Made by a program: the position numbers and the translations under genes
The notes under the pieces: model-generated
What the model saw: only the letters and a program-made list of their open reading frames with translations
Told to the model about the DNA's origin: nothing
The model's database searches: none
Virus record (IMG/VR): IMGVR_UViG_3300032243_000867
Span: 128,001-192,000 of that record
Length of the DNA: 64,000 bases
Reading direction: 5' to 3' (one strand)
From: a virus
Lineage: Duplodnaviria; Caudoviricetes
Shown: positions 1 to 29,461 of the stretch, one piece after another
Numbering within the stretch: position 1 is the first letter of the stretch
Layout: every line of letters starts with the position of its first letter

Positions 1-40
1 TCGCCAACGCCATGGGCGTATTGTTCTCTTCGGAGGAAGA

Positions 41-625
41 ATGAGTACAGAAGGTCCGAAGGTTCTCTGGGTGCTCGGTGAGCCTGGGGTGGGGAAGACA
101 ACTCTGGTCCGTGAGCTCACGAAGGGAACTCTGTTTTCATTCGTCGAGAACCCGAAGTGGACCTTTGCCGGGGAAGGGTTCGCTCTCGCTGGTCACTACA
201 AGGGCGGGACGTTCGACGGCGCGGACACGGTTCCCTACAACGGGGCTGACGCCGCACTGATCTACTGGGAGCAGAACCTTCGGGGCAAGTACCCGGTGAC
301 GATTCTGGACGGTGACCGTTTCTCTCACGACGGTGCTCGGCGGTTTTTTTCGCCCCTCGCGTCTACGTTCGCGGTTCTACTGACGGCCCCTTCGGAAGTC
401 GTCTCCGCCCGCAGACAGGAGCGCGGGTCGAATCAATCTGCTTCCTGGGTGGCGGGGCGGAAAACGAAGTCCGCCCGTTTCTTCGAGGGTTTCGATAACT
501 CCCACGCCCTTCAAATCGACGCCTCGCTCCCGGTTGAACAGATTGTGGAACGGGTGAGGGACCTGTTGCAGAACGGCTCTGGGCGGGACAACTCCGACGG
601 TCTTCTCTCTTGGTTGGGATCGTGA
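41..625 (+). CDS. P-loop nucleotide kinase, probable 5-hmU DNA kinase of a thymidine hypermodification cluster
   Basis: Walker A GEPGVGKTT; GHYKGGTFDGAD and ILDGDRF segments; GGAGG RBS at 32-36; directly upstream of an amino acid:DNA transferase-like gene. Confidence 0.7.
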   Translation: MSTEGPKVLWVLGEPGVGKTTLVRELTKGTLFSFVENPKWTFAGEGFALAGHYKGGTFDGADTVPYNGADAALIYWEQNLRGKYPVTILDGDRFSHDGARRFFSPLASTFAVLLTAPSEVVSARRQERGSNQSASWVAGRKTKSARFFEGFDNSHALQIDASLPVEQIVERVRDLLQNGSGRDNSDGLLSWLGS

Positions 626-644
626 GCGATCTTCTCTCTTGGTT
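601..644 (+). repeat. 15-bp direct repeat TCTTCTCTCTTGGTT across the kinase/transferase junction
   Basis: Identical copies at 601-615 and 630-644, each read as LLSW: once at the kinase C-terminus, once at the transferase N-terminus. Confidence 0.9.
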
Positions 645-1572
645 CGGTGAAGCCTCTGCGCCAGCCCCTTCCGAGACCGCCCCTTACTACGAACGCCCCT
701 TGTTCGATTCGTTCGTGAAGTTCGCGAAGGCCCATATCGAGAGCGGCGACATCGACCCGGCTTACCCGGTCTTGAAGGAGGTCTACCGGATGCGGGGATA
801 CTCCCGCGAGACTGCCCTCTGGCACACTCTTCTGTACGTCACTTGGTACAACGTCGGGTCCGCCGAGGAAGCGTTCGCCCGATACCCCAATGCCCCGTCA
901 AGGCTCGAAGAGCCTCTGACCCTTCCGACGGGCACGGAGCGCCGTTCGTTTCGCGGTAACGATCTGGCCCGCACTCACCTCAACGCTCTTCTGGAGAGGG
1001 CTCGCCCCCACGGATCCCTTTCACGTTGGGCGGAAGCCGCAACGGAGAAGGGCGGGGAAGCGGGCTGGGACGGGATACGGACGGAGTTCCAGAGCGTGAA
1101 ATACGCGGGTCCTTGGAGCAGCTACAAGCTCGCTGACCTCCTCGCCCACGTTCACGACTTCCCCATCACAGCTTCGGACCTCGGTATCGGGGGGGCGAGT
1201 GAGACAGCGGGTCCGATTCCCGGTATGGTCAAGCTCACCGGGTACGACTGGAAGAAGTGCGCGACGGACCTCGGACTCCAGCGGGAGCTTTTGGCCCGCA
1301 GCCGCGACCGGGGCGTACCCTTCTCTGGCCTCGACCAACTAGAAACCTCCCTGTGCGACTTCAACTCTCTCTGCAAGGGTAGGTACTACGTCGGGCACGA
1401 CCTCGACCAGCAAATGGAGCACCTCCGTAGCGCGAGCGCCGCCGAGGACTTCTGGACCGCCCGCAGAAAGACGTTCCCGGTTCGTTATCTCGGAGAGGTG
1501 AACGGGTGGTTCGGCGTAAGAAAATCCCTCAAGGACAAGTTTCATTTCAACGGCGATCTGGTGCAGATCTAG
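622..1572 (+). CDS. Amino acid:DNA transferase (aGPT-Pplase2/AADT family, HhH-glycosylase-like fold)
   Basis: GPWSSYKLADL and ETSLCDFNSLCKGRYYVGHD motifs typical of this family; GTG at 622 overlaps the upstream TGA (track start 610 TTG is the alternative). Confidence 0.75.
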   Translation: MSDLLSWFGEASAPAPSETAPYYERPLFDSFVKFAKAHIESGDIDPAYPVLKEVYRMRGYSRETALWHTLLYVTWYNVGSAEEAFARYPNAPSRLEEPLTLPTGTERRSFRGNDLARTHLNALLERARPHGSLSRWAEAATEKGGEAGWDGIRTEFQSVKYAGPWSSYKLADLLAHVHDFPITASDLGIGGASETAGPIPGMVKLTGYDWKKCATDLGLQRELLARSRDRGVPFSGLDQLETSLCDFNSLCKGRYYVGHDLDQQMEHLRSASAAEDFWTARRKTFPVRYLGEVNGWFGVRKSLKDKFHFNGDLVQI

Positions 1573-1578
1573 GGGCGA

Positions 1579-1796
1579 ATGGAAATGAGACGCGCCTCAA
1601 ATAGGTTGAGGACAGGGAAGATTCTCTGCTGTCACGTCACAGATGCCAATCTCAACTATTCCGGTAGCGCGACAACGGATCCGGCGCTTCTGGAAGCGGC
1701 GGGGCTCTCCGAGAGGTCGAGATCTGGAATGTGACCGACGGAGAGAGGTTCTCCGCCTACCTTCCCAATTCATCGAAGTCCCGCAAGGAAATCTGT
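1579..1796 (+). pseudogene. panD: Frameshifted, truncated aspartate 1-decarboxylase relic
   Basis: Frame from 1579 reads GKILCCHVTDANLNYSGSATTDPALLEAAGL; after a shift near 1711-1716 another frame reads VEIWNVTDGERFSAY. Both match PanD (E. coli [32 protein letters not shown]...IDIWNVTNGKRFSTY). Confidence 0.8.
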
Positions 1797-2610
1797 GAGT
1801 CTTCTCATCGAAGGAACACCCGTCGAACGGGTAACTGATCGCGTCTCCGTGAAGCGGGAGGATATGTGCTCCCCCTTCCCTGGACCCTCTTTCAGTAAGA
1901 TCCGGGGCGTGCTGAAGCACATCGAGAAGCGCCCGGAAACCGAAATCGGGGTTCTGGACACCTACCACTCCAAAGCGGGTTGGGCCGTGTCCTACGTCTC
2001 CCACCACCTGGGTAAGAAGGCTCTGGACTTTTACCCCCGATACAAAGGGGACGGACCCGAGGTGCGGGATCAGCAGAAGATGGCGCGGGAGTATGGCGCG
2101 GAGCTTTTCGAGCTTCCGGCGGGACGTAGCGCGATTCTCTATCACCAAGCGCGTAAGGAGTGCGTACGGCGCGAAGCGTACCTCATGCCCAACGCCCTGA
2201 AGCTGCCGGAAACCGTGGGGGAGTGTGCCGAGGAGGTTCTCCGTACCCCAGACCTTCACAAGTACGCGAATCTAGTGATCAGCGTCTCGTCGGGGACGAT
2301 AGCGTCAGGGGTGCTTCTTGGTTTCGCGAAAGCCAAGATTTACCCGACTGTCTGGCTCCACGCCGGGTACTCGCGTTCCGAATCCGAGCTCCGCCGATAC
2401 ATCACGGCGAAGGTTCCGAAGTTGTCTTTCTGGCCTTCAGAAGTGAACCTCATCGACGAGGGCTACGGATACAAGGACGCCGCGAAGATCGACGACCCGC
2501 CCCCCTTCCCCTGCAACCCCTACTACGACCTGAAGGCGTGGAAGTGGCTGAAGAGCGGGGCGGAAGATCGAATGACGGGCGAAATTTTGTTCTGGAACGT
2601 CGGGGCGTAA
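1795..2610 (+). CDS. PLP-dependent enzyme, fold type II (TrpB-like); probable decarboxylase acting on modified DNA bases
   Basis: SFSKIRGV candidate Schiff-base lysine, SKAGWA, SVSSGTIASG phosphate loop, FWNVG C-terminus; lies between the transferase and radical SAM genes. Confidence 0.7.
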   Translation: MSLLIEGTPVERVTDRVSVKREDMCSPFPGPSFSKIRGVLKHIEKRPETEIGVLDTYHSKAGWAVSYVSHHLGKKALDFYPRYKGDGPEVRDQQKMAREYGAELFELPAGRSAILYHQARKECVRREAYLMPNALKLPETVGECAEEVLRTPDLHKYANLVISVSSGTIASGVLLGFAKAKIYPTVWLHAGYSRSESELRRYITAKVPKLSFWPSEVNLIDEGYGYKDAAKIDDPPPFPCNPYYDLKAWKWLKSGAEDRMTGEILFWNVGA

Positions 2611-2642
2611 GTCCCCAAAACTCTGAAACTGAAAGGCACGCG

Positions 2643-4106
2643 ATGGATCTCGACGCATGGCTCGAAGAAGACCTCACCTCGGAGGAGACGAAACAAGCCT
2701 ACCAGTATTTCATGAAGCCCGAGCCCCGCGACATCGCCGGGGACTTGGAGACGGACCCGGAGACGGGCATCCGTTCCCGGCTCATGCGTATCGGAATGCT
2801 TCGGGGCATGAAGGACGAGGACAAGAAGACCTATCGGGTGTATCTTGACCCGATTCCCCACATCCGCATCGACGAGGGCAAGCCTCTTCAGGCTTGGTAC
2901 AAATCGAAGCACGAAGAGCCCGGTGTCCGCAACCGCCCGTGCTTTACCGAAGCGATCCTCACCCAGCCGTACGGAGGGTTCTGCGCGGTGGGTTGTGCTT
3001 TCTGTTACATCAATAGCGGGTTCAAGGGCTACCGGGGATCGGGCCTTATCTCCGTTCCGATGGGGTACGGGAAGCAGGTCCGGGAGTCCCTGAAGAAGAT
3101 GAAGACCTCGGCAGCGGGGTACTTCAGCTCTTTCACCGACCCGTTCCTTCCCTTGGAGGACGTTTACCACAACACGCAGGAAGGCGCTCAGGCGTTCGTG
3201 GATGAGGGGCTCCCCATCTTCTTCCTCTCCCGCATCAAATACCCTTCCTGGGCGTTCGATCTTCTGCGGCAGAATCCGTATAGCTACGCTCAGAAGAGCA
3301 TCAACTGCGCGAACCAGGAAGACTGGAAGCGCCTGTCCCCCGGCGCGGCATCCCTCGCTACTCACATGGAGGACATCCGCGAGCTTCGCAAGGCGGGCAT
3401 CTACGTCAGCATCCAAGTCAATCCCATCATCCCCGGAGTCGTGAATCATGACGACGTAGAGCAGGTGTTCGAGATGCTTGCGGAAGCCGGGGCGAACCAC
3501 GTCATCGTGAAGTTCGTCGAGGCCAGCTACTCTTGGGCTCCCGCGATGGCGGAGAAGATCCGTTTCCGCTTCGGGAAAGAGCGCGGAAGTAAGTTCGAGA
3601 GCCTCTTCACCGAGAACATCGGGGGTCAGCGAACCATCGTGGAGGAATACCGGATGGAAGGTCACCGCCGATACCAGAAGGCGGCTACCCGTCTCGGGAT
3701 GACGTACGCGACCTGCTACGAGTACCGGATGGAGCGGGATGCCGCCGGAAGGGTCACGAACAAGACGGGCGTGTCCGTGGGAAAAGAATTCCTCACGGCG
3801 GATCAGTGCCACGGACACAAGGTGCCGATGTTCACCCGGTCCGATCAGAAGGAGCCCTTCCGCGAAGTTTCACACTGCCCGCCGACGGGATGCCTCTCCT
3901 GTTCGGACGACAACGGCGGGAAGGCCCGCTGCGGTTCCGAGTTGTACGGCGCGGCAGCGGCGCTTCGCCTACCGGACTTGAAGGTCGGGGTGTACGATGA
4001 CGTTCCCGCTTCGCGGAAGCGTTCGCTCCCCGTGATCAACACCCCGGCCCCCGCTCCCCTCCCCACGACCATGTCCGAAATCCTCGGGCTGAGCGGAGAA
4101 GAGTAG
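2643..4106 (+). CDS. Radical SAM enzyme, probable glycyl-thymine isomerase type
   Basis: CAVGCAFC (CxxxCxxC) at 2982-3005; FSSFTDPF and VNPIIPG segments; Cys-rich C-terminal region; ATG 2643 preferred over the track GTG 2160, which overlaps the PLP gene. Confidence 0.8.
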   Translation: MDLDAWLEEDLTSEETKQAYQYFMKPEPRDIAGDLETDPETGIRSRLMRIGMLRGMKDEDKKTYRVYLDPIPHIRIDEGKPLQAWYKSKHEEPGVRNRPCFTEAILTQPYGGFCAVGCAFCYINSGFKGYRGSGLISVPMGYGKQVRESLKKMKTSAAGYFSSFTDPFLPLEDVYHNTQEGAQAFVDEGLPIFFLSRIKYPSWAFDLLRQNPYSYAQKSINCANQEDWKRLSPGAASLATHMEDIRELRKAGIYVSIQVNPIIPGVVNHDDVEQVFEMLAEAGANHVIVKFVEASYSWAPAMAEKIRFRFGKERGSKFESLFTENIGGQRTIVEEYRMEGHRRYQKAATRLGMTYATCYEYRMERDAAGRVTNKTGVSVGKEFLTADQCHGHKVPMFTRSDQKEPFREVSHCPPTGCLSCSDDNGGKARCGSELYGAAAALRLPDLKVGVYDDVPASRKRSLPVINTPAPAPLPTTMSEILGLSGEE

Positions 4107-4571
4107 TCACCCCACCCACCACTCCGGGCGATTCCTCCGCCAAGTCCCCAACCTCCCCCCTCGCTTCGTCTGGTAGTACCTCCGATACGCGCCCACCGAT
4201 TCGTGACCTCTCAGTTCCACGGGCATCGCTTGGGCGAACGGGGTCATCATTCGGTCGGGGAGGGAGGGGACGTTCTCTGCGAGGTGGAGCAGCACGGCCT
4301 CCGTGGCGTGCGTCTTCCCGTACCGGGCCGTGTACTCGCGGCACAGTTCCAGACCTAGCTCGCACAGCCACAGGTAGTTTGCTTGTGAGTCTCTCGCCCA
4401 CACGGCGCAAGGGTGGTTCGCGTGCGTCGGTCGGTACGGGGCGGTACTCCCCGTGAGGTGATGGGCGGTGCAGAGTAGCTGCGCCGTTTCCAGCACCATC
4501 TTCACGACGTGGGCATCGCAGTGCCACCGTGCGGCTTGGCGGGGATCGTAGTGGAGGGCGAAGACGTTCAC
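4107..4571 (-). CDS. Pyrimidine dimer DNA glycosylase / endonuclease V-like protein
   Basis: MNVF...HVVKMVLETAQLLCTAH, YRPTHANHPCAVWAR, ELCREYTARYGKTH, FAQAMP, YRRYY motifs. Confidence 0.8.
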   Translation of the reverse strand: MNVFALHYDPRQAARWHCDAHVVKMVLETAQLLCTAHHLTGSTAPYRPTHANHPCAVWARDSQANYLWLCELGLELCREYTARYGKTHATEAVLLHLAENVPSLPDRMMTPFAQAMPVELRGHESVGAYRRYYQTKRGGRLGTWRRNRPEWWVG

Positions 4572-4578
4572 GCGGGCG

Positions 4579-4593
4579 GTTACGCCTCTATTA
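4579..4593. promoter_or_regulatory. Divergent control region: AGGCGTAAC on minus (4579-87), CTAT on plus (4588-91)
   Basis: 38-nt gap between the glycosylase gene (-) and the GGCT gene (+). Confidence 0.5.
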
Positions 4594-4609
4594 TCCTAAC
4601 GGTCCGTAG

Positions 4610-5059
4610 ATGGAACCCGCCCGCCCGGTCCTGTACTTCGGGTACGGGTCGAACCTGAACGTGCCCGTGATGCTATCGCGGGTGCCCCACGCCAAGTTGC
4701 TGTTCGGTGCGTACCTCCCCTACCACAAGCTCACCTTCGCGGGCGATCACCCGATCAGCGGCGGTGGCGGTAAAGCGACGCTGGTGCCCGCGATGTCCCT
4801 CGTGCCCGGTGCCTTGTACTCGGTGACTCGCGATGACCTTCACCTACTGGACCACATGGAGGGCACCCCCACGGGCAACCACCGCCACAACGAGTACGTC
4901 TACGGCTGGGACGGCACCCGCTACGAAGCCTTCATGTACCGCCAGAACTCGGGCACCCCGTACCACCAGCCCTCGGAAGAGTACCTGCGGATGATCGTCG
5001 AGGGCCGTAAGATGTTCGGATACCCTTTCTCCGACGTGATCCAAGAGGCCATGCGATGA
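4610..5059 (+). CDS. Gamma-glutamylcyclotransferase (AIG2-like) family protein
   Basis: YFGYGSNLN N-terminal motif, LDHMEG catalytic-Glu motif, PSEEYL C-terminal motif. Confidence 0.85.
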   Translation: MEPARPVLYFGYGSNLNVPVMLSRVPHAKLLFGAYLPYHKLTFAGDHPISGGGGKATLVPAMSLVPGALYSVTRDDLHLLDHMEGTPTGNHRHNEYVYGWDGTRYEAFMYRQNSGTPYHQPSEEYLRMIVEGRKMFGYPFSDVIQEAMR

Positions 5060-5655
5060 CCCCCGGCACGCACAAGCTCCCGCCCCTGCCCTACGCCTAC
5101 GATGCCCTTGAGCCGTGGATGGGCGCGGAGACGGCGCGGCTGCACCACGGCAAACACCACCAAGCCTACGTTGACGGGTTGAACGAAGCTGAAGTCGAGC
5201 TCGCCAAGGCGAGGGCTTCGGGCGACATCAAGCTCGTCCCGTACTGGCAGACCCGGCGAGCGTTCAATGAGGGCGGGCACGTTCTGCACTCGATCTTCTG
5301 GCATTGTATGTCGCCCGACGGCGGCGGGCTTCCCGCGGGCAACCTAGCCACCCTGATTGACCGGGACTTCGGCGGGTACAAGGCGTTCCGCCGTGAGTTC
5401 GTCGCCACGGCCAAGGGCGTCGAGGGGTCGGGCTGGGCGGTTCTCGTACTCAAGCGCGGGATGCGCGGTGGACGCCTAGAGGTGGCACCCGTTCACAATC
5501 ACGAGAACCGCGCCCTGTGGCAGTCACAGGTGCTGCTCCCGATGGACGTGTGGGAGCACGCCTACTACCTCGACCACCAGAACGACCGGGAGGGCTGGGC
5601 CAACACCTTCCTCGACCATCTGGTGGACTGGGACTACGTCGGAACGAGGCTCTAA
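5056..5655 (+). CDS. sod: Fe/Mn superoxide dismutase
   Basis: LPPLPYAYDALEP, HHGKHHQAYV, GGHVLHSIFW, GSGWAVL, DVWEHAYY with all four metal ligands. Confidence 0.95.
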   Translation: MTPGTHKLPPLPYAYDALEPWMGAETARLHHGKHHQAYVDGLNEAEVELAKARASGDIKLVPYWQTRRAFNEGGHVLHSIFWHCMSPDGGGLPAGNLATLIDRDFGGYKAFRREFVATAKGVEGSGWAVLVLKRGMRGGRLEVAPVHNHENRALWQSQVLLPMDVWEHAYYLDHQNDREGWANTFLDHLVDWDYVGTRL

Positions 5656-6023
5656 TGCCCCCTCGAAAGAAGAAGCCGTCCACCGCCGCGAGAGGCGACT
5701 GCTACGAAGCGGCTGGGAAGTATATGTTCGAGAACTGTCTGATGGACCCCCAGTGCGGGCTGCGGGTCGTTCACGGAGAGGTCGCTGGGCAGGGGCCGCT
5801 AAAAGGCGTCACCTTCGGGCACGCTTGGGTTCTGGACGGCGACACGGTGATTGACCGCTCGAACGGTCGGAGCTTGCGGATTCCCAAGGTCGTGTACTAC
5901 GCGCTGGGTTCCATCGAGCGCATCGGGAACCTGCACACCTACACCTGGGACGAGGCCAAGAAGAAGATGCTTCAGTTTGGGCACTACGGCCCGTGGGACC
6001 TCAAGACCCGGAGCGGGCTATGA
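5655..6023 (+). CDS. Hypothetical protein with possible Cys-His-Asp (papain/transglutaminase-like) triad
   Basis: GDCYEAA...GHAWVLDG..ID; ATG overlaps the SOD stop (TAATG). Confidence 0.55.
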   Translation: MPPRKKKPSTAARGDCYEAAGKYMFENCLMDPQCGLRVVHGEVAGQGPLKGVTFGHAWVLDGDTVIDRSNGRSLRIPKVVYYALGSIERIGNLHTYTWDEAKKKMLQFGHYGPWDLKTRSGL

Positions 6024-6148
6024 AGGAACTGTTCACCCTCCCTTCGGTGAAGCGCGAGCCCGTACCGGCGACGGTGCTGGACGTGCTCCGCGACGGCGGC
6101 GGGGAGCCTTCCGCCCGGAGGGTTGCCTCCCGATTTCTGGGGCGGTGA
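6020..6148 (+). CDS. 42-aa small protein ending in ARRVASRFLGR (absent from ORF track)
   Basis: Manual translation MKELFTLPSVKREPVPATVLDVLRDGGGEPSARRVASRFLGR; ATGA overlap with the upstream stop; GC3-rich codons. Confidence 0.6.
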   Translation: MKELFTLPSVKREPVPATVLDVLRDGGGEPSARRVASRFLGR

Positions 6149-6155
6149 CCCCCTC

Positions 6156-6164
6156 CGGGCGTAA
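6156..6164 (+). promoter_or_regulatory. Class A motif CGGGCGTAA upstream of the vWA gene
   Basis: In the intergenic gap, 19 nt before ATG 6183. Confidence 0.55.
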
Positions 6165-6182
6165 TAGCCCCCGGAGGCCACA

Positions 6183-8648
6183 ATGGCAACGAAGTCAAAG
6201 ACCCAGACCAACATCACCAAGTTCGCTCTCCGTAACTTCAAGGGCACCCCCACCCGCTACTTCCGCTGCGAGGCGGAAGACCTCACCGCGAAGGCGACCG
6301 TCGAGGTTCGCAAGCCTTCGCACCACATCCTCGTGATCGACCGTTCGGGCTCGATGTACGGGGACATCGGGGACGTGAAGGGCACCGTCGAGAAGCTCCT
6401 CACCCTCTCCGAGTTCCGCGATCCGACGCTGAAGGTGTCCCTCATCTCCTACTCGTCGCGGGGCGACGTGAAGCTGCACTTCAGCAAGGTGACGGTGGAG
6501 GACGTGATGCGGGCGGGCTCCCCGTACCTCGGTGAGATCCGCAGCATTCACGCCACGGCCCTCACCTGCATCTCGCAGGGCCTCGCGATGGCAGAGACCA
6601 TCGTGGACGATGCCGATACGACGTGCGTGACGCTTCACACGGACGGTTTCGCCAACGACCGGAGCCCCACGGCGGAGGCCCGCGACATCAAGGCGGCGGT
6701 CGAGAAGCTCAAGAAGCATCCCAACCTGTTCGCCAACACCATCGGGTATCGCGACTGGTGCGATTACAACCTCCTCGCCAGCATCAGCAACGCCCTCTCG
6801 GGCGTGTGCGTGCAGGCCAAGGGCATCAAGGCCGTGTACGAAGCGGTCTACAACACCACCAAGCTGCTGGCGGGCACGATGTCGACCGCCGTCGAGGTGT
6901 CGCGCGGCAAAGCGGCGTACACGCTGTTCGTGTCGAAGGCGGGCCGCAAGGTGCTGGGTTCCCGCGACGACACGATGCTGGTGCGTGGCCTCGCTCCGAC
7001 CGACGACAAGACCTCCTACCGCCTGTTCGAGATCAACGGGCAGGACTACGCGGCGCTGGACGTTCCGGTGAACGGCGACGGCGCGGACGTGCAGCCCGTC
7101 CTCGCCTACGCCCGCGCGCTGGTTTCGGAAGGTGAGCTCAATGCGGCGAAGTACGCGATGGTGGCCACTCGGTGCGGGGAGCTTCTGGAAGGCCACGCCC
7201 GCGCGCTGGTGTCCTCGGACATCGCGGCGATGGCCGACGCCATCGAGGGCTACACCTTCGACCGCGCCTTCACCCCCGCCCCCGTCTACGGGTTGCCCTC
7301 CACGGGTCCGTCGGTGCTCACGGTGCTCACCTACCTCAACGGGCACACGGACACCCTCTCGGTGGACCTCCCGACTTTCGCCAAGAGCTACAAGCGGCGG
7401 GGCGTGAAGCGCATCCCCGGCACGCGCCTCGCGGACGGCACGGTGGAGGAGCCCAAGGTTAGCTCCAAGGTGCGCGAGGGCGGGGACGGATGGGTGCGGG
7501 TCAACAGCTTCGACCTCAACCGCAACACGGCCAGCATCAATATGCTGGTGAGCCAACCCATCGACCTGTTCCCGAAGGGGTCGTCCCAGCGGGTGGCGAG
7601 CGTGGCGGGGGTGTCCCTCGACGACCTCAAGAGCTACAACAACTACACCCTCGTCGGTGATGGAATGCTGAACGTGGCTTCCCTCAACCTCCGCACGTCG
7701 GATCAGAAGGTGATCGTCGGGCTCGCTTCCCTCGGGCTCCACCTCGCCAATGCCAAGGCGGGCCAGCCCTTCACGCTCGACCTGTCGGGCCTCCCGCTGG
7801 TGGACTACGACCTCAACGTGAGCGCGGTGGACAACACTACGGCTACGCGCCTCGCGCGGCTCACGGTTCTCTCCAAGATCCTCAACGGCATGGTGAAGGG
7901 CGACGCCAGCGGGTTCACTTCGGAACAGGTGAACGACCTCAAGGCCCACTACCTCACCCCGGCGATGTACTTCTCGCCGCCCACCACCACGGAGTACGCG
8001 GACCTCGCGGACGCCATCGCCACGGGCAAAGTGGACACGAAGCTGTCCTACAAGGTGAACGTCGGCACGCCTTCCATCACGGGGCTGGACAAGCTGAAGT
8101 CGGGCAACGAGTACCTCCAGCGGCGCTTCACCTTGAAGGCCAACGGGGCGGACATCGAGAAGCCCACGCTGGATTACATCCCGCTTCCCAGTTCCGAGTG
8201 GGCGGTCAAGAAGCTCTCGGCCCGCACCGCCCTCGACGCCGTGGACGACCTCTCTTACCCCATCTACGAGGGCATCCTCGGTCTGGGCGACGGCACGGTG
8301 CTGAAGGATCTTCTGAAGGGAGTGGGGTGCGTGGACCCGGCGCGGTTCATCGCGGACATCAAGGGGGCGAACGCCCGCGACGAGATCAAGACGGCGATTC
8401 GGTTCGTGGACGATGCCATCGAGGCCGTGTACGAGACGGTTCGACCGCTGGCCTTCTACATCGGTGCGACGGGCCTTGTGCCCGATACCCTCGGCGCGAA
8501 GGCCCTGACTGCCGACGAGTTCGCCACGGCGCACCCGGAGGCGAAGCTGTCGAAGGCCGAGAAGGAGGAGGGCACGTTCTTCACCCTCCCCGACAACACG
8601 GTGCTGACCGTGTACGTCAAGGGCGAGCACTTCTCGACGGGCAACTAG
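6183..8648 (+). CDS. Large von Willebrand factor A (MIDAS) domain protein
   Basis: ILVIDRSGSM (DxSxS), ALTCISQG and LHTDG MIDAS motifs; GGAGG RBS; strong GC3 bias. Confidence 0.85.
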   Translation: MATKSKTQTNITKFALRNFKGTPTRYFRCEAEDLTAKATVEVRKPSHHILVIDRSGSMYGDIGDVKGTVEKLLTLSEFRDPTLKVSLISYSSRGDVKLHFSKVTVEDVMRAGSPYLGEIRSIHATALTCISQGLAMAETIVDDADTTCVTLHTDGFANDRSPTAEARDIKAAVEKLKKHPNLFANTIGYRDWCDYNLLASISNALSGVCVQAKGIKAVYEAVYNTTKLLAGTMSTAVEVSRGKAAYTLFVSKAGRKVLGSRDDTMLVRGLAPTDDKTSYRLFEINGQDYAALDVPVNGDGADVQPVLAYARALVSEGELNAAKYAMVATRCGELLEGHARALVSSDIAAMADAIEGYTFDRAFTPAPVYGLPSTGPSVLTVLTYLNGHTDTLSVDLPTFAKSYKRRGVKRIPGTRLADGTVEEPKVSSKVREGGDGWVRVNSFDLNRNTASINMLVSQPIDLFPKGSSQRVASVAGVSLDDLKSYNNYTLVGDGMLNVASLNLRTSDQKVIVGLASLGLHLANAKAGQPFTLDLSGLPLVDYDLNVSAVDNTTATRLARLTVLSKILNGMVKGDASGFTSEQVNDLKAHYLTPAMYFSPPTTTEYADLADAIATGKVDTKLSYKVNVGTPSITGLDKLKSGNEYLQRRFTLKANGADIEKPTLDYIPLPSSEWAVKKLSARTALDAVDDLSYPIYEGILGLGDGTVLKDLLKGVGCVDPARFIADIKGANARDEIKTAIRFVDDAIEAVYETVRPLAFYIGATGLVPDTLGAKALTADEFATAHPEAKLSKAEKEEGTFFTLPDNTVLTVYVKGEHFSTGN

Positions 8649-11862: not shown

Positions 11863-12870
11863 ATGGCAAAGCAGACTGAAGTTGCGCTCGGGTGTGGTCT
11901 GGACGTGGGCACCATGAATGTGGTCGCCGCGAGGAAGTCCTCGTCGGGAGTTGAAACCCGTCGCGTGCGAGACGCCTTTCTGGAGCTGCCGATTGATTCT
12001 AAGAAGATGCTCAAGCTCTCGAACGTGAGCTTTGTGGAGCGCGCCGACGAACTTCTCATCCTCGGTGACGCCGCGATGGACACGGCCAACATCTTCGGGC
12101 GCGAAGCCCGCCGTCCGTTGTCGGCGGGCTTGGTGTCCTCCTCGGACATCGACGCGATGGAGATCCTCGGGCTGCTCATCAAGAACGTCCTCGGTGAGCC
12201 CAAGGTTCCCGGCGAGCACTGCTACTTCAGCGTTCCCGCCGCTCCCGTGGACAAGCCCGGGCAGGACGTGATCTACCACCGTGGGGTGCTGGAGAAGATT
12301 GTCCGTGAGTGCGGGTACACCCCCACGGCGGGCAACGAGGCGATGGCGATTGTCTACGCCGAGACCGCCAAGGAGGGCTTCTCGGGCATCGGCATCTCGT
12401 TCGGCAGCGGAATGACGAACATCGCCCTCGCGGTGAACACCATCGAGGGGCTGTCGTTCTCCGTGGGGCGCGGCGGTGACTGGATCGACCAGGGGTCCGC
12501 AAAGGCTCTGGGGTCTACCGCGTCTCGGATGTGCGCTATCAAAGAGAAGGGTATCGCCCTCGGTGCCCCGGTGGGGCGGGAACAAGAAGCCTTGGAATTT
12601 TACTGTCGCAACTTGATCGAGTACTCCATCGACCATATCGCCCTTCAGTTCATGTCGATTCAAGGCAAGTTCACTCTCCCGAAGCCCGTGCCCATCGTGG
12701 TGTCGGGGGGTACTTCCAAGGCGGGCGGGTTCCTCGATCTGTTCAAGGCGGTGTTCGAGAAGAAGCGCAAGAAGTTCCCCATCGAGGTGAGTGAGATCCG
12801 CGCCTCTACCGACCCGCTCAACGCGGTCGCGAACGGGTTGCTCATCCAAGCGATGCAGGAGAGCGAGTGA
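11863..12870 (+). CDS. Actin/Hsp70-fold ATPase (MreB/ParM/MamK-like)
   Basis: Phosphate-1 GLDVGTMNV, connect-1 NEAMA, phosphate-2 ISFGSGMTNI, GRGGDWID, adenosine VVSGGTS, connect-2 PLNAVANG; 335 aa. Confidence 0.85.
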   Translation: MAKQTEVALGCGLDVGTMNVVAARKSSSGVETRRVRDAFLELPIDSKKMLKLSNVSFVERADELLILGDAAMDTANIFGREARRPLSAGLVSSSDIDAMEILGLLIKNVLGEPKVPGEHCYFSVPAAPVDKPGQDVIYHRGVLEKIVRECGYTPTAGNEAMAIVYAETAKEGFSGIGISFGSGMTNIALAVNTIEGLSFSVGRGGDWIDQGSAKALGSTASRMCAIKEKGIALGAPVGREQEALEFYCRNLIEYSIDHIALQFMSIQGKFTLPKPVPIVVSGGTSKAGGFLDLFKAVFEKKRKKFPIEVSEIRASTDPLNAVANGLLIQAMQESE

Positions 12871-14698: not shown

Positions 14699-14823
14699 TT
14701 TCCGGCGGTTCCCTACCTATAACGGGAGCCTTCGTGTAACGCCTCCTAATCTTCCGTGAGCTTTCTCGCCGGGGTGTTCTCGGCGTGTTCTTCAGCTTCG
14801 GGGGGCGGTACGCGGAGACTTTC

Positions 14824-17800
14824 ATGCCTAGCGTTCTCACGGGCGGATACGCGCCCCCCGGCGTGTACACTCAGACCTTCTTCGGCACCCCTCCTCAGAT
14901 CCCGGTCGTTCCTCCGCTGGTCCCGCTGTTCATCGGGACGGGCTCGGAGATTCTCTCCCAGACGAACCTCGCCGTGGTGCGCGGTAGTTCGGCCTCGGTC
15001 GATCAACAGATCGTCAACGAGGACGAAGCGGGCCGCGCCGTGGTGTACGTTGCTCCCAGCGGCGCGATCACCCTCGGAGCCTTCGACGGAACCGTCAACA
15101 AGTTTCAGGTCAAGAACTACCCCGTGGTCAACGGGGACGGTTCGGGCACGACAACGACGGACACCTCTTCTCTCTCCGTGACCATCAACGGCGAGCCCAC
15201 GGTTGTGCTCGGCCTCAACGGCACGACGGGCGTGGTGGAGATTTCCGACTACCCCGCCCCCACGGACCTCGTTCTCTGCACCTACTACTTCAAGCGCACG
15301 GACACGCGGGTGACCGACGACGTGTCGGCGCAGGTGACATCTACCGCTGCGATTCTCAACGGGCGCGTCGGAGAGAGCTTCACCTTCGCCTCGGGCTCCA
15401 ACCAGTTCACCCTCTCCGTGGACGGCCTCGCTTCGGTGACGGTGCCCTTTCCCGTCGGCACGTTCGCCGCTGCGGTGGTTGCGGCGACGCTGAACGGGAC
15501 GGCGGGCCTCGGTTCGCTCGTGGCCTCAACCTTCGTGAACAACCTCGGGGCGGTGTGTGTCCGTCTCTCTGCCGACAAGTCCCTCACCATCGGCAGCGGC
15601 AACGCCAACGGCGTGATCGGTTTCGTTGCAGGCGACGCGACCACCCGCAACCGCACGTTCTACACGTTCAACGGCCCCATCGTGAACGGGAACAACGGCG
15701 GTATCACCACCACCAACCCGTCAGACGTGGTGGTGAAGGTGAACGGCGTGGTTGTGACCCCCTCGTCGGTCAACGGTCGCACCCGTGCGGTGACGCTTCC
15801 CTACGCCCCGGCAAAGGGAAGCACCGTCACCATTCAGTATTACTTCAACGCATGGCAGGATACGTTCGATTACCTCGCCAACACGGGCGTGACTGCCATC
15901 ACCCGTGCAGCCGTCACCCCCAACAGCAACGGCGCGGGCGTGTACGTTCAGGGCGCGGACTACGTCCTAAAGAACGACACCATCGTCTGGGGCACTGCGG
16001 TCCTCGTCAACTCGGGCCTCCACACGGAGGGCTTCGCTACCTTCGGTAGTTCGCAAATCTCCGCTATGCTGGTGGACAACCAGGCGTTCATGGCGGAGTG
16101 TAGCGCCGTGGTGAACACGACGGGGACCGTCTCCGTCGAGTCCCGTACGCAGTTCCAGCTTCCGTACCAGCCCACGACGGGCAACGGGCGCGGCAACCCG
16201 CTCGGGAGCACCCAATACCAGATCATCTCCAACGGTCGCATCGACCTCCCTACGGACCAGCCGGAACTCGTGACGGCGTACTGGGGGTTCGGCGTCGCGG
16301 ACGCGATGGAACGCGGCCCTGTCACGGTCATCAAGGTGGATAGCGACTCCAGCACGATCACTCTCGCGGGTGAGGTGCCGGAAGGCGCGACTGTCTACGC
16401 CAGCTTCTATTACAACACCCTCACCGACCAAGCCTTCATCGGATCGTCGCGCGGATTCACCCTCACCAACGTGTCCGCGGGCACGTCGGGCGTAGGCACC
16501 TACTCGATCACCGATGGCAACAACCTCCCCGTGTACGGGGTGACGTATCTCGGCAAGGGTACTTCCCTCAACTCCATCGAAGTGGTGTTTCCCTCGGGCT
16601 CGGAGTTCCTCTCCGATGCCCGTCTGGAGAACGGCACCCCGACGCTGGAGACGGTCACGGTCGAGTTCGCCTCGACGGACGAAACCCCCGCCCGGTTCAC
16701 CCTTTCCGGCGCGGGTTCGTACAACACCATCGCGGGGGAGTCCAGCAACCTCGCGCTGAAGATCGACGGCTCGCTCCTCGCGGGCAGCGCCCTCAACCTC
16801 ACCGTGCCCTCGGGCGGCACCCGTGGCGGAGCGTTCGCCAGCATCGTCAGCGACGAGATCCCCTACACGGCGGCGTCGGGCGGCACATCCTACGTCATCA
16901 CGGCAGGGGTCAACGACACCGTGTCCCTTCTCGTGGACGGCGTGAGCCTCACGGCCACGGCGGGCGCGGGCGGCACCCAAGACGCTGCCGACTTCGTGAA
17001 CGCCATCAACGCGGAGTCGGTCGCGGGCGGCAACGAGCCCTACTTCGACTCGGCGGGCGCGTTCCCCTCGGGCTTCACCGTCACGTTGGGCCTGTACGAC
17101 CGGATCGTGTTTCGTTACACGGGCGACGTGTCGGGCTCCTCGGGTAGCCTCACGGCGACCCTCACCCCCATCCCCGGAGCGTACACGGCGGCGACTCTCG
17201 CAACGGAAGTCGAGGCCCAGCTTGCGGCGCAGATCGGGACTCTCGGCGGGGCGTTCGCGGGACTCGCGGTGGCGGTGGACGCCACGGCGACGAGCGCCCT
17301 GCGCTTCACGCTCACCAAGGCCACGGGCGATGCCTCGGGCTACTTGGAGTTCGTGACGGGGGGCACCCCGGCGCGGGACTTCTGCATCGTCGCGGGCATC
17401 AGCACGGCGGCGGCAAGCGGCGACGGGACCAAGCTCTACCACGGTCCTATCGCCGTTCACTACACGGTGACGACTGCGGCGGGCCGCATCCCCTACGACC
17501 GGATTGCCCTCCGCAACCGCATCTTCCCCGGTGCGGGCTCCCTCGCTCCGTTCAACGCCCTGTCGCAGTGCGTCCTGCAATCGCAGGGCGGCAATGGCTC
17601 GGCGCTCGCGGGTCTGCCCTCGACCCTGTCTGGCTCGGCGGCGTACACGGGCTGCGCTCTCGGCCCGAACCTCTTGGGCAACACGGGTTGGTCGGGTCAG
17701 ATCGCGGCGGCGACTTTCGGCGACGCCCGTGACGGTCAGCCCTCGGTGACTTTCTACGACGGGACGGACCCTCTCTATCCCGCCAACAACGTGTTCAAGC

Positions 17801-19773
17801 TCACGGTGAACGGCACCCTCATCACGGTGGTGTTCGCGGCCTCCGCCACGGGCACGGTGACGGCGGTGGGTCCGAACATCGCGGGCTCGGTCCTCGACGC
17901 CCTCAACACGGCGCTCGGTTCTGCCCCCGGCTCGGTGAGCGCGACCCAAGAAGGCGCGAGCATCCGCATCTACGCCTCGGGCACGGCGAACCTCTCGCAG
18001 AGCGCGGCGCTCATCGTCGGTGACGGCAACGCGAACTCGGTCCTCGGATTCTCGTCGGGCACCATCGCCTCGGTGAACCCGATCACGGCGAAGCAGCTTG
18101 CGTCGGCACTCATGTCGAACGTCAACAACACGGACTTCGTGAACTGGCTGCACGACCCCACGGTTTCCTCGACGGGGTACTTCCAAGGGGAAGCCCTCGC
18201 CAGCACGGTGACGAGCGCCACGAATCAGTCGTACCTGTACGTTCAGAGCCGCGCCAACGCAGGTCTGGGCACGGCGTCCAGCATCCAGTTCCAAGATGCC
18301 GCCGCGAGCAACGCCCTTCGCACGGGCAGCGGCCTCGGCGTGGTCGCGGGCGACGGTTCGAGCGGCGAAGCGGCCATCAACGGCTTCTTCGTCACCTCCT
18401 CCGATCCCACCTCGGGCTCGGGTAGCGCGAACACCTCGGTGTTCAACTCGGGCGTCGGTCAGGACGGCATCATCGGCCAGACCTACGTCGATGACGCGAC
18501 GGGCCTCACCTTCACGGTGCTCCCGCGTGCGGGGGGGCTCCAGTACCCCACGGGAGGGTCGGCCACCCTCACGTTCCGTTCGAGCACGACCTTCGTGACG
18601 GACGCCAACATCCCGACGCTGGCCATCCCCGGCCTTGATCTCACCGTGAGCAACACGGCGGGCGTCGCGGTGGGCGACACGGCGCTGGTGGAGACGTTCA
18701 AACGCGGTGGGGCGGAACCCGGCATCGGGGAGCTCTACTACGTCAGCTACAACTACGCCAAGACGGACTTCAGCCCCAAGCTGTTCGCCCGTCTTCAGGA
18801 CGTAGTGAACGAGTACGGGGTCGTCTCCCCCGACAACCCCCTGTCCCTCGCGGCGTACATCGCCTTCCTCAACGGGTCGTCGGTCGTCGGGTGCATCCAG
18901 GTGCCGAAGACTCCGGGTTCCGCTACGGCGAGCGAAGCCGCGTACCAAGCGGCCATCGACGTGTCCTCGGGCGAGAGCCTTCCGGGCTTTGTCGCCCCGG
19001 CGGTGCTGGTGCTTCTCACCCCGGCAACGGCGAACCTCGTGCGGTACATGACGATCCACTGCGATACGCAGTCGTCCATCCGCTTCAAGGCGGAACGCAC
19101 GGCGATCTTCGGATTCGCAGCGGGCACCCGCATTGACCAGGCCCTCACCCTCGCTCAGTCGGCGGGCGATACCCGCGTGCGCTTCGTGTACCCAGACATC
19201 GCCAGCATCTCGCTGACCGACGCGCTGGGCACGACCCGGAGCTACCTCGTGGACGGGCGCTACCTCGCGGTTGCGGTCGCTGCTTCGACGACCTCCCCGA
19301 TCATCGACCCTGCGACCCCGTGGGAGTCCCGCTCCCTCACCGGGTTCACCTCCCTCAACCGTCGCCTCGACGCGGTTCGCATGAACCAACTCGCGGTGGG
19401 CGGCATCACGGTGCTGGAGAACCGCCCGCCGTTCATCCGCATCCGTCACGGACTCACGTCCGACGTGAGCAACGTGCTCACCAAGACCCCGACCGTCATC
19501 CAGATCGCGGACGAGATTCAGAAGCGCGTTCGCGCGGTCTGCAACCCCTTCATCGGCGCGAAGTTCCTGCCCCAGCTACTGGGGCAGATCGAAGGACGCC
19601 TCTCGGAGATGTTCAAGGTGGCGGTGAACGAGCAGATCATCACCAGCTTCACGAACGTCGCGGTGACGGCGGACCCCACCGACCCCACGGCGATCCTCGT
19701 TTCTGCCTACTACCAGCCCGTTTTCCCGCTTCTCTATGTGCAGATTACCCTGCGCGTCTCCGCTTCTAGCTGA
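14824..19773 (+). CDS. Contractile tail sheath protein, 1649 aa
   Basis: N-terminal YAPPGVYT; C-terminal sheath domain (MNQLAVGGITVLE, IRIRHGLT, EIQKRVRAVCNPFIG, YYQPVFPLLYVQITL); ATG 14824 preferred over track 14785. Confidence 0.9.
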   Translation: MPSVLTGGYAPPGVYTQTFFGTPPQIPVVPPLVPLFIGTGSEILSQTNLAVVRGSSASVDQQIVNEDEAGRAVVYVAPSGAITLGAFDGTVNKFQVKNYPVVNGDGSGTTTTDTSSLSVTINGEPTVVLGLNGTTGVVEISDYPAPTDLVLCTYYFKRTDTRVTDDVSAQVTSTAAILNGRVGESFTFASGSNQFTLSVDGLASVTVPFPVGTFAAAVVAATLNGTAGLGSLVASTFVNNLGAVCVRLSADKSLTIGSGNANGVIGFVAGDATTRNRTFYTFNGPIVNGNNGGITTTNPSDVVVKVNGVVVTPSSVNGRTRAVTLPYAPAKGSTVTIQYYFNAWQDTFDYLANTGVTAITRAAVTPNSNGAGVYVQGADYVLKNDTIVWGTAVLVNSGLHTEGFATFGSSQISAMLVDNQAFMAECSAVVNTTGTVSVESRTQFQLPYQPTTGNGRGNPLGSTQYQIISNGRIDLPTDQPELVTAYWGFGVADAMERGPVTVIKVDSDSSTITLAGEVPEGATVYASFYYNTLTDQAFIGSSRGFTLTNVSAGTSGVGTYSITDGNNLPVYGVTYLGKGTSLNSIEVVFPSGSEFLSDARLENGTPTLETVTVEFASTDETPARFTLSGAGSYNTIAGESSNLALKIDGSLLAGSALNLTVPSGGTRGGAFASIVSDEIPYTAASGGTSYVITAGVNDTVSLLVDGVSLTATAGAGGTQDAADFVNAINAESVAGGNEPYFDSAGAFPSGFTVTLGLYDRIVFRYTGDVSGSSGSLTATLTPIPGAYTAATLATEVEAQLAAQIGTLGGAFAGLAVAVDATATSALRFTLTKATGDASGYLEFVTGGTPARDFCIVAGISTAAASGDGTKLYHGPIAVHYTVTTAAGRIPYDRIALRNRIFPGAGSLAPFNALSQCVLQSQGGNGSALAGLPSTLSGSAAYTGCALGPNLLGNTGWSGQIAAATFGDARDGQPSVTFYDGTDPLYPANNVFKLTVNGTLITVVFAASATGTVTAVGPNIAGSVLDALNTALGSAPGSVSATQEGASIRIYASGTANLSQSAALIVGDGNANSVLGFSSGTIASVNPITAKQLASALMSNVNNTDFVNWLHDPTVSSTGYFQGEALASTVTSATNQSYLYVQSRANAGLGTASSIQFQDAAASNALRTGSGLGVVAGDGSSGEAAINGFFVTSSDPTSGSGSANTSVFNSGVGQDGIIGQTYVDDATGLTFTVLPRAGGLQYPTGGSATLTFRSSTTFVTDANIPTLAIPGLDLTVSNTAGVAVGDTALVETFKRGGAEPGIGELYYVSYNYAKTDFSPKLFARLQDVVNEYGVVSPDNPLSLAAYIAFLNGSSVVGCIQVPKTPGSATASEAAYQAAIDVSSGESLPGFVAPAVLVLLTPATANLVRYMTIHCDTQSSIRFKAERTAIFGFAAGTRIDQALTLAQSAGDTRVRFVYPDIASISLTDALGTTRSYLVDGRYLAVAVAASTTSPIIDPATPWESRSLTGFTSLNRRLDAVRMNQLAVGGITVLENRPPFIRIRHGLTSDVSNVLTKTPTVIQIADEIQKRVRAVCNPFIGAKFLPQLLGQIEGRLSEMFKVAVNEQIITSFTNVAVTADPTDPTAILVSAYYQPVFPLLYVQITLRVSASS

Positions 19774-28207: not shown

Positions 28208-29461
28208 ATGCCGCCGAAGCCCGTACAAGCTCCCGCTTCGTTCGCGGGAATCCCGAACGTGTTGAGCGGCCCGGTCGGCCCGAACTTCGCCCGCGAGATC
28301 GAGATTCAAGAAGGGGTCGCTATCGACGGCTCCGACCGGACGCCCCGTACCTACTCGCCGTTTCTCATTCGGGTTCTTCTCCCAGACGCTATCGGGGGCG
28401 ACCAGAACACGACCATCTCGACGCAGAGAAATCCCGACCGGGCTCCTCCGAGTTCGACCGTTCGCTCGGACAACCGCGACGGGTATACCTACTCTCAAGG
28501 TCAGAACAGCGCCCGCGTGAACCCCTCGGGAGCCCCTGCGTATGCCCGTCTGGTGAATACCGGGGAAGCCGTGCCGGGGTTGACCGAGGCGTCATCCCGG
28601 TCCCTGGAGGACGCTTACAACCAGGCCACGTTTCAGCAGGTCTTCGGCGGAGAGGTTCAGAACGTCACCCGCGCCCCGGCTAACACCCGTACCAACAACG
28701 TCACCCCGGCGATCACCAACGACACGACGGCGCTATCCATGGCGTTGCAGTTGAAACAACTGTCGGAAGTGCCCCCGTTGCTCATGCTCATCAACCCGTC
28801 GTCGATGAAGATCGACTACACGAAGGTGGCGCAGTTTCAGAACCGCAACCGCTTCGGGTACGTCTACGAAGCGTGGGGCGAGGAGATGCCCAAGCTCTCG
28901 TTCACCTTCAAAATCGGCGCGTACACGGCGGGCCTTCAGAACGTCTCCCAACAGGGAACCGCGGTGTCCGGGGTGCAGCGGGCTTCGCGCAACGACAGTG
29001 CGGCGTACCAACAACTGATGACCCTTCTTACGATGTTCCAAGGAGCAACGTACATCCAGGACACCGTCACGAACACCCGTGCGTTCTGGATGGTCGGCAA
29101 CCTCGCTATCGAGTACGACCAGATGGTGTACGTCGGGCACATGGAGAACTTCAGCTTCACGGATGATGAGCAGCACCCGCACGGCGGTCTGGAAATCTCC
29201 ATCGACTTCGTGGCCAACCGCATCTACGACGCGGCGGATACCCCCGGAGAGATAACCGCGATGAGCGGGCCGGAAACCCGTACCCGTTCGCGCGGGACTC
29301 TTCTTCGGGGGGGCTCCGGTACGAGTGCTTCGTTCTTCACGCTTCCGGGCGTCGGCGGCACGAGCCCCGTATCAGGCACGGTGAACCGGGCTTGGGAGAG
29401 CGCGGCGGGAGCTACGGCGGGATCTAGTGTGGTCGCCGTGTCGGATACTCGGAGGCGCTGA
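28208..29461 (+). CDS. Tube-like baseplate protein / tail tube initiator 2 (paralogue)
   Basis: LINPSSMKIDYTK...YEAWGEE..KLSF and MENFSFTDDEQHP...ISIDF parallel the preceding gene. Confidence 0.6.
   Translation: MPPKPVQAPASFAGIPNVLSGPVGPNFAREIEIQEGVAIDGSDRTPRTYSPFLIRVLLPDAIGGDQNTTISTQRNPDRAPPSSTVRSDNRDGYTYSQGQNSARVNPSGAPAYARLVNTGEAVPGLTEASSRSLEDAYNQATFQQVFGGEVQNVTRAPANTRTNNVTPAITNDTTALSMALQLKQLSEVPPLLMLINPSSMKIDYTKVAQFQNRNRFGYVYEAWGEEMPKLSFTFKIGAYTAGLQNVSQQGTAVSGVQRASRNDSAAYQQLMTLLTMFQGATYIQDTVTNTRAFWMVGNLAIEYDQMVYVGHMENFSFTDDEQHPHGGLEISIDFVANRIYDAADTPGEITAMSGPETRTRSRGTLLRGGSGTSASFFTLPGVGGTSPVSGTVNRAWESAAGATAGSSVVAVSDTRRR

Follow-up and report, generated by a model that had tools for sequence, protein, structure and literature searches.

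The left end of a 64,000-nt window of viral DNA (bases 128001-192000 of the 265,895-bp IMG/VR virus record IMGVR_UViG_3300032243_000867, ∼59% complete according to CheckV) carries a gene cluster predicted to hypermodify thymine in the DNA of a giant freshwater phage. Coordinates below refer to this window unless they are given as positions of the record. The first-pass annotation of the window had described four adjacent genes at 41-4106, encoding a kinase, an amino-acid:DNA transferase (AADT)-like enzyme, a fold-II pyridoxal phosphate (PLP) enzyme and a CxxxCxxC radical S-adenosylmethionine (SAM) enzyme. All four genes were confirmed: they adjoin one another in the same orientation on the plus strand, and their identities are borne out by motifs and by Pfam and PHROG profile searches. 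A fifth gene, directly upstream of the kinase gene at 126848-128044 of the record, encodes a TET/JBP (5mYOX) dioxygenase of 398 aa; with 1153 of its 1197 bases located before the window starts, it could not be seen in the first-pass annotation. The cluster is laid out as follows:

1-44, plus strand: 3' end of the TET/JBP gene (PF12851), whose stop overlaps the kinase start
41-625, plus strand: P-loop DNA kinase of the Ploopntkinase3 type, predicted 5-hydroxymethyl-2'-deoxyuridine (5-hmdU) DNA kinase, 194 aa, Walker A GEPGVGKTT
622-1572 (alternative start 610), plus strand: AADT, formerly aGPT-Pplase2 (PF18724, phrog_6364)
1573-1794, no strand: non-coding spacer of 222 nt between the AADT and PLP enzyme genes, unique in the genome
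1795-2610, plus strand: PLP-dependent enzyme, 271 aa, ortholog of gp52 of Pseudomonas phage M6 (C-alpha-glycinylthymine decarboxylase)
2643-4106, plus strand: radical SAM enzyme, 487 aa, ortholog of M6 gp53 (N-alpha to C-alpha glycinylthymine isomerase)

The first three genes overlap: ATGA at 41-44 joins the stop of the TET gene to the start of the kinase gene, and GTGA at 622-625 does the same for the kinase and AADT genes. The GTG at 622 is the likely start of the AADT; a TTG at 610 is open too, and the gene call in the database begins VSDLLSWF. The start of the radical SAM enzyme was placed at ATG 2643 (MDLDAWL...) from its orthologs, and the start at 2160 of the longest open reading frame (ORF) was rejected. 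The 222-nt spacer holds no significant promoter or terminator signal and belongs to no repeat family; it is missing in a related locus (L006), where the AADT and PLP enzyme genes overlap. Searches for promoters, terminators, tRNAs and Rfam families gave nothing above background in positions 1-6200 or in the window.

The kinase falls slightly below the cut-off of Pfam family PF18751 (Ploopntkinase3; 23.5 bits, cut-off 27) and matches phrog_800 (E 1.8e-9). Its L006 ortholog, 76% identical, scores 31.6 bits, and PF18751 is present in most of 120 kinase homologs. The AADT matches PF18724 (47.1 bits, cut-off 26.2, E 3.3e-12) and phrog_6364 (E 2.1e-24), the PHROG to which M6 gp51 also belongs. The DIDPxYP, PTGTERR, GPWxxYK and ETxLC motifs, the last with its catalytic cysteine, are kept in the alignment, the window protein reading ETSLCDF...GRYYVGHD; a search of the PDB by sequence returned one AADT-domain entry only, with a weak match (E 1.7e-4). 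The PLP enzyme reaches 34.5 bits against PALP (cut-off 35) and matches phrog_7093 with an E value of 2.9e-84, and the lysine of its FSKIRG motif aligns with the Schiff-base lysine K36 of gp52 (PMC8989533). The radical SAM enzyme carries the motif CAVGCAFC and matches phrog_9252 (E 1.9e-204); this motif and a second set of cysteines (CHG, CPPTGCLSC, CG) are invariant in all four aligned sequences. The L006 ortholog (L006:4482-6887) has a 317-aa intein inside CxxxCxxC (CAVGCAF, intein, C), the third cluster cysteine being the +1 residue. NCBIfam searches gave no useful names.

The same four activities, adjacent and co-oriented, form the pathway of phage M6 to 5-(2-aminoethyl)-2'-deoxyuridine (5-NedU), which uses gp51 (AADT), gp52 (PLP decarboxylase), gp53 (radical SAM enzyme), gp54 (5-HMUDK) and gp58 (dUMP hydroxymethylase) (Lee et al., 2018, 2021); the radical SAM, PLP, AADT and kinase activities have been reconstituted (Lee et al., 2021; PMC8989533). 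The window PLP enzyme and gp52 share 55% identity (E 2e-101), the radical SAM enzyme and gp53 63% over 449 aa; both window enzymes have all cofactor motifs, and the radical SAM protein matches 73 phage records, mostly Pseudomonas phages of the M6/YuA group. Against gp51 the AADT shows 23% identity; between the kinase and gp54 the alignment covers just 54 aa (35% identity). M6 gp54 is a PF18748 (HMUDK) protein; the window kinase lacks a PF18748 match. It shares phrog_800 with gp54, and a profile of window-type kinases aligned to a gp54-type profile in hhalign with 95.4% probability (E 1.9e-8) over 118 columns that extend beyond the P-loop. The proposal of a thymidine-hypermodification cluster related to that of M6 is thus upheld by the gp52 and gp53 orthologs and by an AADT of PF18724 and of the gp51 PHROG. 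The kinase and AADT are of other clades than those of M6 and have their best phage matches in actinophages. The phages differ further: the gene order is rotated here, with the kinase first; a gp55 homolog is absent from the 266-kb record; and the window genome is that of a ∼450-kb freshwater giant phage, whereas M6 is a 60-kb siphovirus.

For both AADT and kinase, the most closely related phage proteins (28-36% identity) all come from actinophages. In Gordonia phage Wooper they follow a ParB-like gene and a gene annotated as 'Tet-like J-binding protein', and the Wooper gp4 kinase is of PF18751, as are the window-type kinases. Such actinophage modules (e.g., Wooper gp1-gp4) place a PF12851-type TET, PF18751 and PF18724 side by side, and hold the closest phage relatives of the window kinase (∼32%) and AADT (∼34%). 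Iyer and colleagues are said to have predicted TET/JBP-kinase-aGPT-Pplase2 modules in 2013. Because the actinophage relatives adjoin a Tet-like gene, we searched the record with PF12851 and found the dioxygenase at 62.7 bits (cut-off 34.9). Its Fe(II) ligands, in the HxD motif (HQD) and at the distal histidine (HGNT), and its 2-oxoglutarate-binding arginine (R(V)S) are conserved across seven aligned sequences; it gave no match to the PDB by sequence. The window phage differs from the actinophages in having no ParB partner, in the clade of its TET (21% identical to Wooper gp2; phrog_24024 in the window phage and phrog_6059 in Wooper) and in its radical SAM and PLP back end, which the actinophage modules lack. 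The sole ParB_N match in the record (14.6 bits) is 100 kb away and interrupted by a stop, and we found no credible ParB. A ParB-dependent class of T-dioxygenases has been described, and it is this subclass that is usually linked to kinases and AADTs (O'Toole et al., 2026). The TET of the window phage, if active, would be ParB-independent or use another helper.

Next, we examined how the phage might obtain 5-hydroxymethyluracil (5-hmU). In M6 it comes from a ThyA-type hydroxymethylase, and the first-pass annotation had the phage replace T by hmU at the nucleotide level and had suggested looking for a dUMP hydroxymethylase elsewhere in the genome. None was found in the ∼59% complete, 266-kb record: neither a PF00303 hidden Markov model nor tblastn with M6 gp58 detected a ThyA-type dUMP hydroxymethylase or thymidylate synthase (TS). 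The record does encode ThyX (97.6 bits), which implies a supply of dTMP. The ThyX gene lies outside the window at 74086-75918 of the record (L005:280-2112) and is split by a LAGLIDADG intein; its canonical RHR motif reads RHY, followed by an insertion of 8-9 residues before SQESTRY. The lack of a hydroxymethylase, the presence of ThyX and the coupling of TET to the kinase together point to post-replicative oxidation of T, and replacement at the nucleotide level is not supported on present data. Most likely, 5-hmU would be made from thymine in finished DNA and not through replacement of dTTP. Phage T-dioxygenases (5mYOX) were demonstrated in 2026 (PMC13229309), and TET-associated thymidine-hypermodification contigs had been noted earlier (Lee et al., 2021; PMC8989533): in sequences 22-25 of Figure 2 of that paper (TET_JBP metavirome contigs), the dioxygenase takes the place of the dUMP hydroxymethylase and the hydroxyl is made in situ.

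We then compared 42 IMG/VR loci encoding this radical SAM enzyme. In nearly all of them an AADT and a kinase of the M6 type, gp55 and a TS homolog lie no more than a few kb away, the exceptions being giant-phage contigs. The full TET-kinase-AADT-PLP-radical SAM order was found in one of the 42 (L006), with 63-85% identity to the window. L007 encodes a TET-kinase fusion of 723 aa. L012, on a 288-kb contig, has no TET, and its window-type AADT, PLP and radical SAM genes are accompanied by a TS homolog and a dUTPase/dCTP-deaminase-like gene. The related giant-phage contigs thus carry TET or TS, never both (TET without TS in G004, which holds L006, and in G002, which holds L007; TS without TET in G003, which holds L012), and the two appear to be alternative feeders of one back end. 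The window-type AADT adjoins the radical SAM gene in L006, L010, L012 and L051, with the PLP gene too in all but L010, which argues that the AADT makes the substrate of the radical SAM enzyme. The AADT gene of L010 (L010:5958-6845, on the 248-kb relative G001) has an in-frame stop at the conserved arginine of PTGTERR, and that contig lacks PLP, TET and TS genes; the G001 pathway is decayed, or split with G002, a contig of the same sample that holds the TET-kinase fusion.

These loci bear on the model of the first-pass annotation, in which, as in M6, 5-hmdUTP would be made ahead of replication. The dUMP hydroxymethylase for this would have its gene in genome sequence missing from the record, T would be partly replaced at synthesis, and the TET would be accessory or unrelated. 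The ∼59% completeness of the record leaves room for such a gene, nearly all of the 42 loci have a TS homolog, and G003 uses one together with its dUTPase/dCTP-deaminase-like gene beside the same clade of AADT, PLP and radical SAM enzymes. In those loci, however, the TS homolog lies within a few kb of the cluster; in the window phage its place is occupied by the TET gene, the stop codon of which overlaps the start of the kinase gene. The mutual exclusion of TET and TS in the relatives examined and the dTMP supply implied by ThyX also speak against this model, as do fused proteins among the TET relatives. An exhaustive search for TET relatives (1207 found) added two more TET-kinase fusions (P0314 and P0315) and two single chains of kinase, TET and AADT (P0317, 1281 aa; P0318, 1246 aa); the two kinds of fusion tie the three enzymes to one pathway. 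In P0317 and P0318, ∼390 residues between the kinase and TET domains match none of the window's proteins. We consider synthesis of 5-hmdUTP by a dUMP hydroxymethylase quite improbable in this phage.

We concluded, with moderate confidence, that the cluster is a translationally coupled operon of five genes whose products hypermodify thymine in replicated phage DNA to 5-(2-aminoethyl)uracil or a close relative. All five enzymatic steps are inferred from sequence. In the first, the Fe(II)/2-oxoglutarate dioxygenase of the TET/JBP family would convert T in DNA to 5-hmdU by hydroxylating its methyl group, as suggested by its family, its context and the fusions. The P-loop kinase would phosphorylate the hydroxyl to 5-phosphomethyl-2'-deoxyuridine (5-PmdU), and the AADT would exchange the phosphate for the amine of glycine to form N-alpha-glycinylthymine, the choice of glycine following from the later steps. 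By their identity to gp53 and gp52, the radical SAM enzyme may then shift the linkage from N to C-alpha and the PLP enzyme may decarboxylate the product to 5-NedU, probably the same product as in M6. The DNA would then contain T interspersed with a positively charged base and be protected against host nucleases. Unlike M6, the phage would not require a modified dNTP pool.

Several observations weigh against this five-step pathway. The record being only ∼59% complete, its missing part could hold a hydroxymethylase or a C5 cytosine methyltransferase. The predicted kinase is under its Pfam cut-off and is of PF18751, not of the characterised PF18748. The nearest cultured-phage relatives of the TET (∼35% identity) adjoin glycosyltransferases and methyltransferases, not kinases, and it shares only 21% identity with the TET found in the actinophages beside the closest AADT and kinase, so its substrate is not readable from homology. 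The AADT is distant from the glycine-specific gp51, at only 23% identity, and its position aligned with Asp175 of PaMx11 gp46, a nucleoside-contacting residue, is not conserved. The substrate of the TET and the amino acid of the AADT are the weakest links in the proposed chain.

The first of these links admits a cytosine pathway, in which the TET would oxidize 5-methylcytosine (5mC) to 5-hydroxymethylcytosine, to be phosphorylated and aminoacylated to a hypermodified cytosine. Among phage TETs, clades A and B consist of 5mC dioxygenases, P-loop kinases stand beside some pairs of C5-methyltransferase and TET genes (Burke, 2021; PMC8256090), and the gene neighbors of the nearest cultured relatives of this TET would suit such a role. 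No PF00145 (C5 cytosine methyltransferase) match was found in the 266-kb record, however, and C5-methyltransferases occur in only 6% of 5mYOX contexts (PMC13229309). The PLP and radical SAM enzymes, at 55 and 63% identity, are close to enzymes that act on uracil-based conjugates, and in G003 the same clade of AADT, PLP and radical SAM enzymes is combined with a TS-type (dUMP) route. A cytosine pathway is therefore very improbable.

The second link allows a different product: the divergent AADT might transfer another amino acid or an amine, from which the radical SAM and PLP enzymes would yield an undescribed base. AADT clade 2 uses Gly, Ser or putrescine depending on the phage (PMC8989533, Table 1), and, besides the low identity to gp51 and the changed residue at the Asp175 position, the closest phage relatives of the AADT (33-36%) are found in actinophages that have no radical SAM and PLP enzymes. 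The window PLP and radical SAM enzymes are, on the other hand, close orthologs of the Gly-specific M6 steps, the isomerase chemistry described so far needs an N-linked alpha-amino acid, and four other loci, three of them with the PLP gene too, have the window-type AADT beside the same radical SAM enzyme. Another product is unlikely on these grounds. Between the variant base suggested earlier and the M6 product, the orthology of the PLP and radical SAM enzymes favors the M6 product.

Four of the five enzymes (TET, kinase, AADT and radical SAM) begin or end in a short hydrophobic-acidic peptide, and the family A DNA polymerase (PolA) of the phage begins with a similar sequence. The peptides (from translation) and the polymerase are located as follows:

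6-41, plus strand: C-terminal tail of TET, ...NAMGVLFSSEEE (...AMGVLFSSEEE)
593-622, plus strand: C-terminal tail of the kinase, SDGLLSWLGS
622-648, plus strand: N-terminal peptide of the AADT, (M)SDLLSWFG, encoded by the second copy of a 21-nt direct repeat
4071-4103, plus strand: C-terminal tail of the radical SAM enzyme, MSEILGLSGEE
54474-57137, plus strand: family A DNA polymerase (phrog_17, E 1.8e-101)

The direct repeat (598-618 and 627-647) encodes both the kinase tail and the AADT head. Similar tails are found on the TETs of L006 and of many homologs (...LNDLFDNGE, ...SLDDFF), including the TET-kinase fusions, and on radical SAM orthologs (...MSELFDFDE in L006, ...VSDMFGVSTEAK in L012, ...SDMFGVS among relatives). 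The PLP enzyme of the window has no terminal peptide, nor have M6 gp51-54; PLP enzymes of relatives begin MTDLFGV or MSDTLSLF. A subset of the 120 kinase homologs has a Pro-rich or acidic linker ending in GVLDMFG, SVLSMFG or GILGFF. A first, narrow regular expression gave three terminal matches (1.9 expected) and no enrichment; a strict one matched seven kinase C-termini (1.3 expected) and no N-termini, and among 120 AADT homologs it matched 10 N-termini (0.8 expected; MSDVLSLF, MDFMDFL, MDFFDF, etc.) and no C-termini. The polymerase reads MMDLFTFLE at its extreme N-terminus (54474-54500), and its G001 ortholog (66% identical) reads MSGDMFDFLTE.

These peptides may dock the enzymes on a common hub, most plausibly the phage's own beta sliding clamp. 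The clamp is a protein of 372 aa with the DnaN fold, encoded at 66883-68001 of the record (AlphaFold2 pLDDT 94.1; Foldseek TM score 0.81-0.85 and E ∼1e-23 to bacterial clamps), and the phage also encodes clamp-loader subunits. The peptides (e.g., xLSLF, VLDLFG and DMFDF) resemble the bacterial clamp motif (QL[SD]LF) and the C-terminal tail of T4/RB69 gp43 in being short and hydrophobic and in lying at the very N- or C-terminus, set off by a flexible linker; they lack the conserved Gln of the bacterial motif. A position-specific scoring matrix built from the cluster peptides was only weakly enriched across the rest of the proteome (p 0.03-0.07), which counts against this idea, and a complex prediction of the clamp dimer with kinase residues 150-194 scored 0.02, which counts neither for nor against binding. 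From the sequences and folds, docking of the enzymes on the clamp is possible, and we propose it tentatively. ParB is itself a DNA-sliding clamp. It is somewhat doubtful, and suggested by the same peptides, that the whole pathway would act post-replicatively on the replication machinery, with the beta clamp as the sliding platform in the role that ParB has for the ParB-dependent thymine dioxygenases of phages. The interaction of T4 alpha-glucosyltransferase with gp45 is the only published precedent that we found (Sommer, 2004; PMC13216743), and our literature search returned no published case of thymidine-hypermodification enzymes as clamp clients. Endings that resemble the terminal peptides also occur in an SNF2-type helicase (...DLSDLFSEL...; 46835-49597, plus strand, 920 aa, split by a LAGLIDADG intein) and in the products of 96804-97526, 119438-119848 and 123394-124875 of the record (...TASLFGLFR, ...EGLFARLFGTGKKK, ...SVLDFFRGA), the protein ending in ...SVLDFFRGA being homing-endonuclease-like.

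Downstream of the cluster, and convergent with the radical SAM gene, lies a minus-strand gene (4107-4571; 154 aa) of phrog_624 (E 1.3e-58), sub-threshold for the pyrimidine-dimer DNA glycosylase family PF03013 (20.5 bits, cut-off 23). It is followed on the plus strand by a gamma-glutamylcyclotransferase-like gene (AIG2/GGACT; 4610-5059) and a complete Fe/Mn superoxide dismutase gene (5056-5655). None of the three is conserved beside the cluster in relatives, and all were dropped as cluster members. Horizontal transfer of the cluster, judged from codon GC3, was dropped too: its genes (0.71-0.80) differ too little from their neighbors (0.81-0.92). Megablast of window positions 1-6000 against 50,697 phage records gave no match, and DNA of the cluster was also found in freshwater and estuary metagenomes of at least four studies.

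PolA and DnaB are both present in the genome, as had been reported. The label of myovirus has a single basis, a sub-threshold tail-sheath C-terminal domain at the end of a 1662-aa ORF (14785-19773, plus strand), and the tail-sheath family PF04984 itself gave no match. This is one of four plus-strand ORFs of 1468-1826 aa with near-zero family matches (the others at 29461-34530, with a glucosaminidase domain inside, 35573-39979 and 41327-46807). A 335-aa protein (11863-12870, plus strand) matches the Pfam family Volactin (PF25216, E 1.1e-69), which makes it an actin-like protein in a giant phage; Volactin is an actin-fold cytoskeletal protein first described in haloarchaea. Upstream of the window, a bactofilin domain is found in an 830-aa protein (116845-119337 of the record; L004:845-3337).

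Earlier work had already described thymidine hypermodification, the enzymes for it and the notion of a TET feeder (Lee et al., 2021; O'Toole et al., 2026). What appears to be new is the combination, in which the kinase and AADT are of the actinophage type, the TET is from a different clade and has no ParB, and the back end of radical SAM and PLP enzymes is that of M6. Its occurrence in ∼450-kb freshwater phages, the fusion proteins and the terminal peptides appear to be new as well. Docking on the clamp, if true, would account for the efficiency with which a number of enzymes acting after replication locate new DNA and process it, and it touches the question left open by O'Toole et al. (2026) of why hypermodification should be post-replicative rather than pre-replicative. 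If the five-gene pathway operates as proposed, a complex cationic base would be installable on ordinary DNA from an unaltered dNTP pool, and the operon would be a self-contained cassette for post-synthetic functionalisation of DNA, for which the natural TET-kinase and kinase-TET-AADT fusions would be ready constructs for biochemistry. DNA hypermodification would then join the known repertoire of the ∼450-kb freshwater megaphages.

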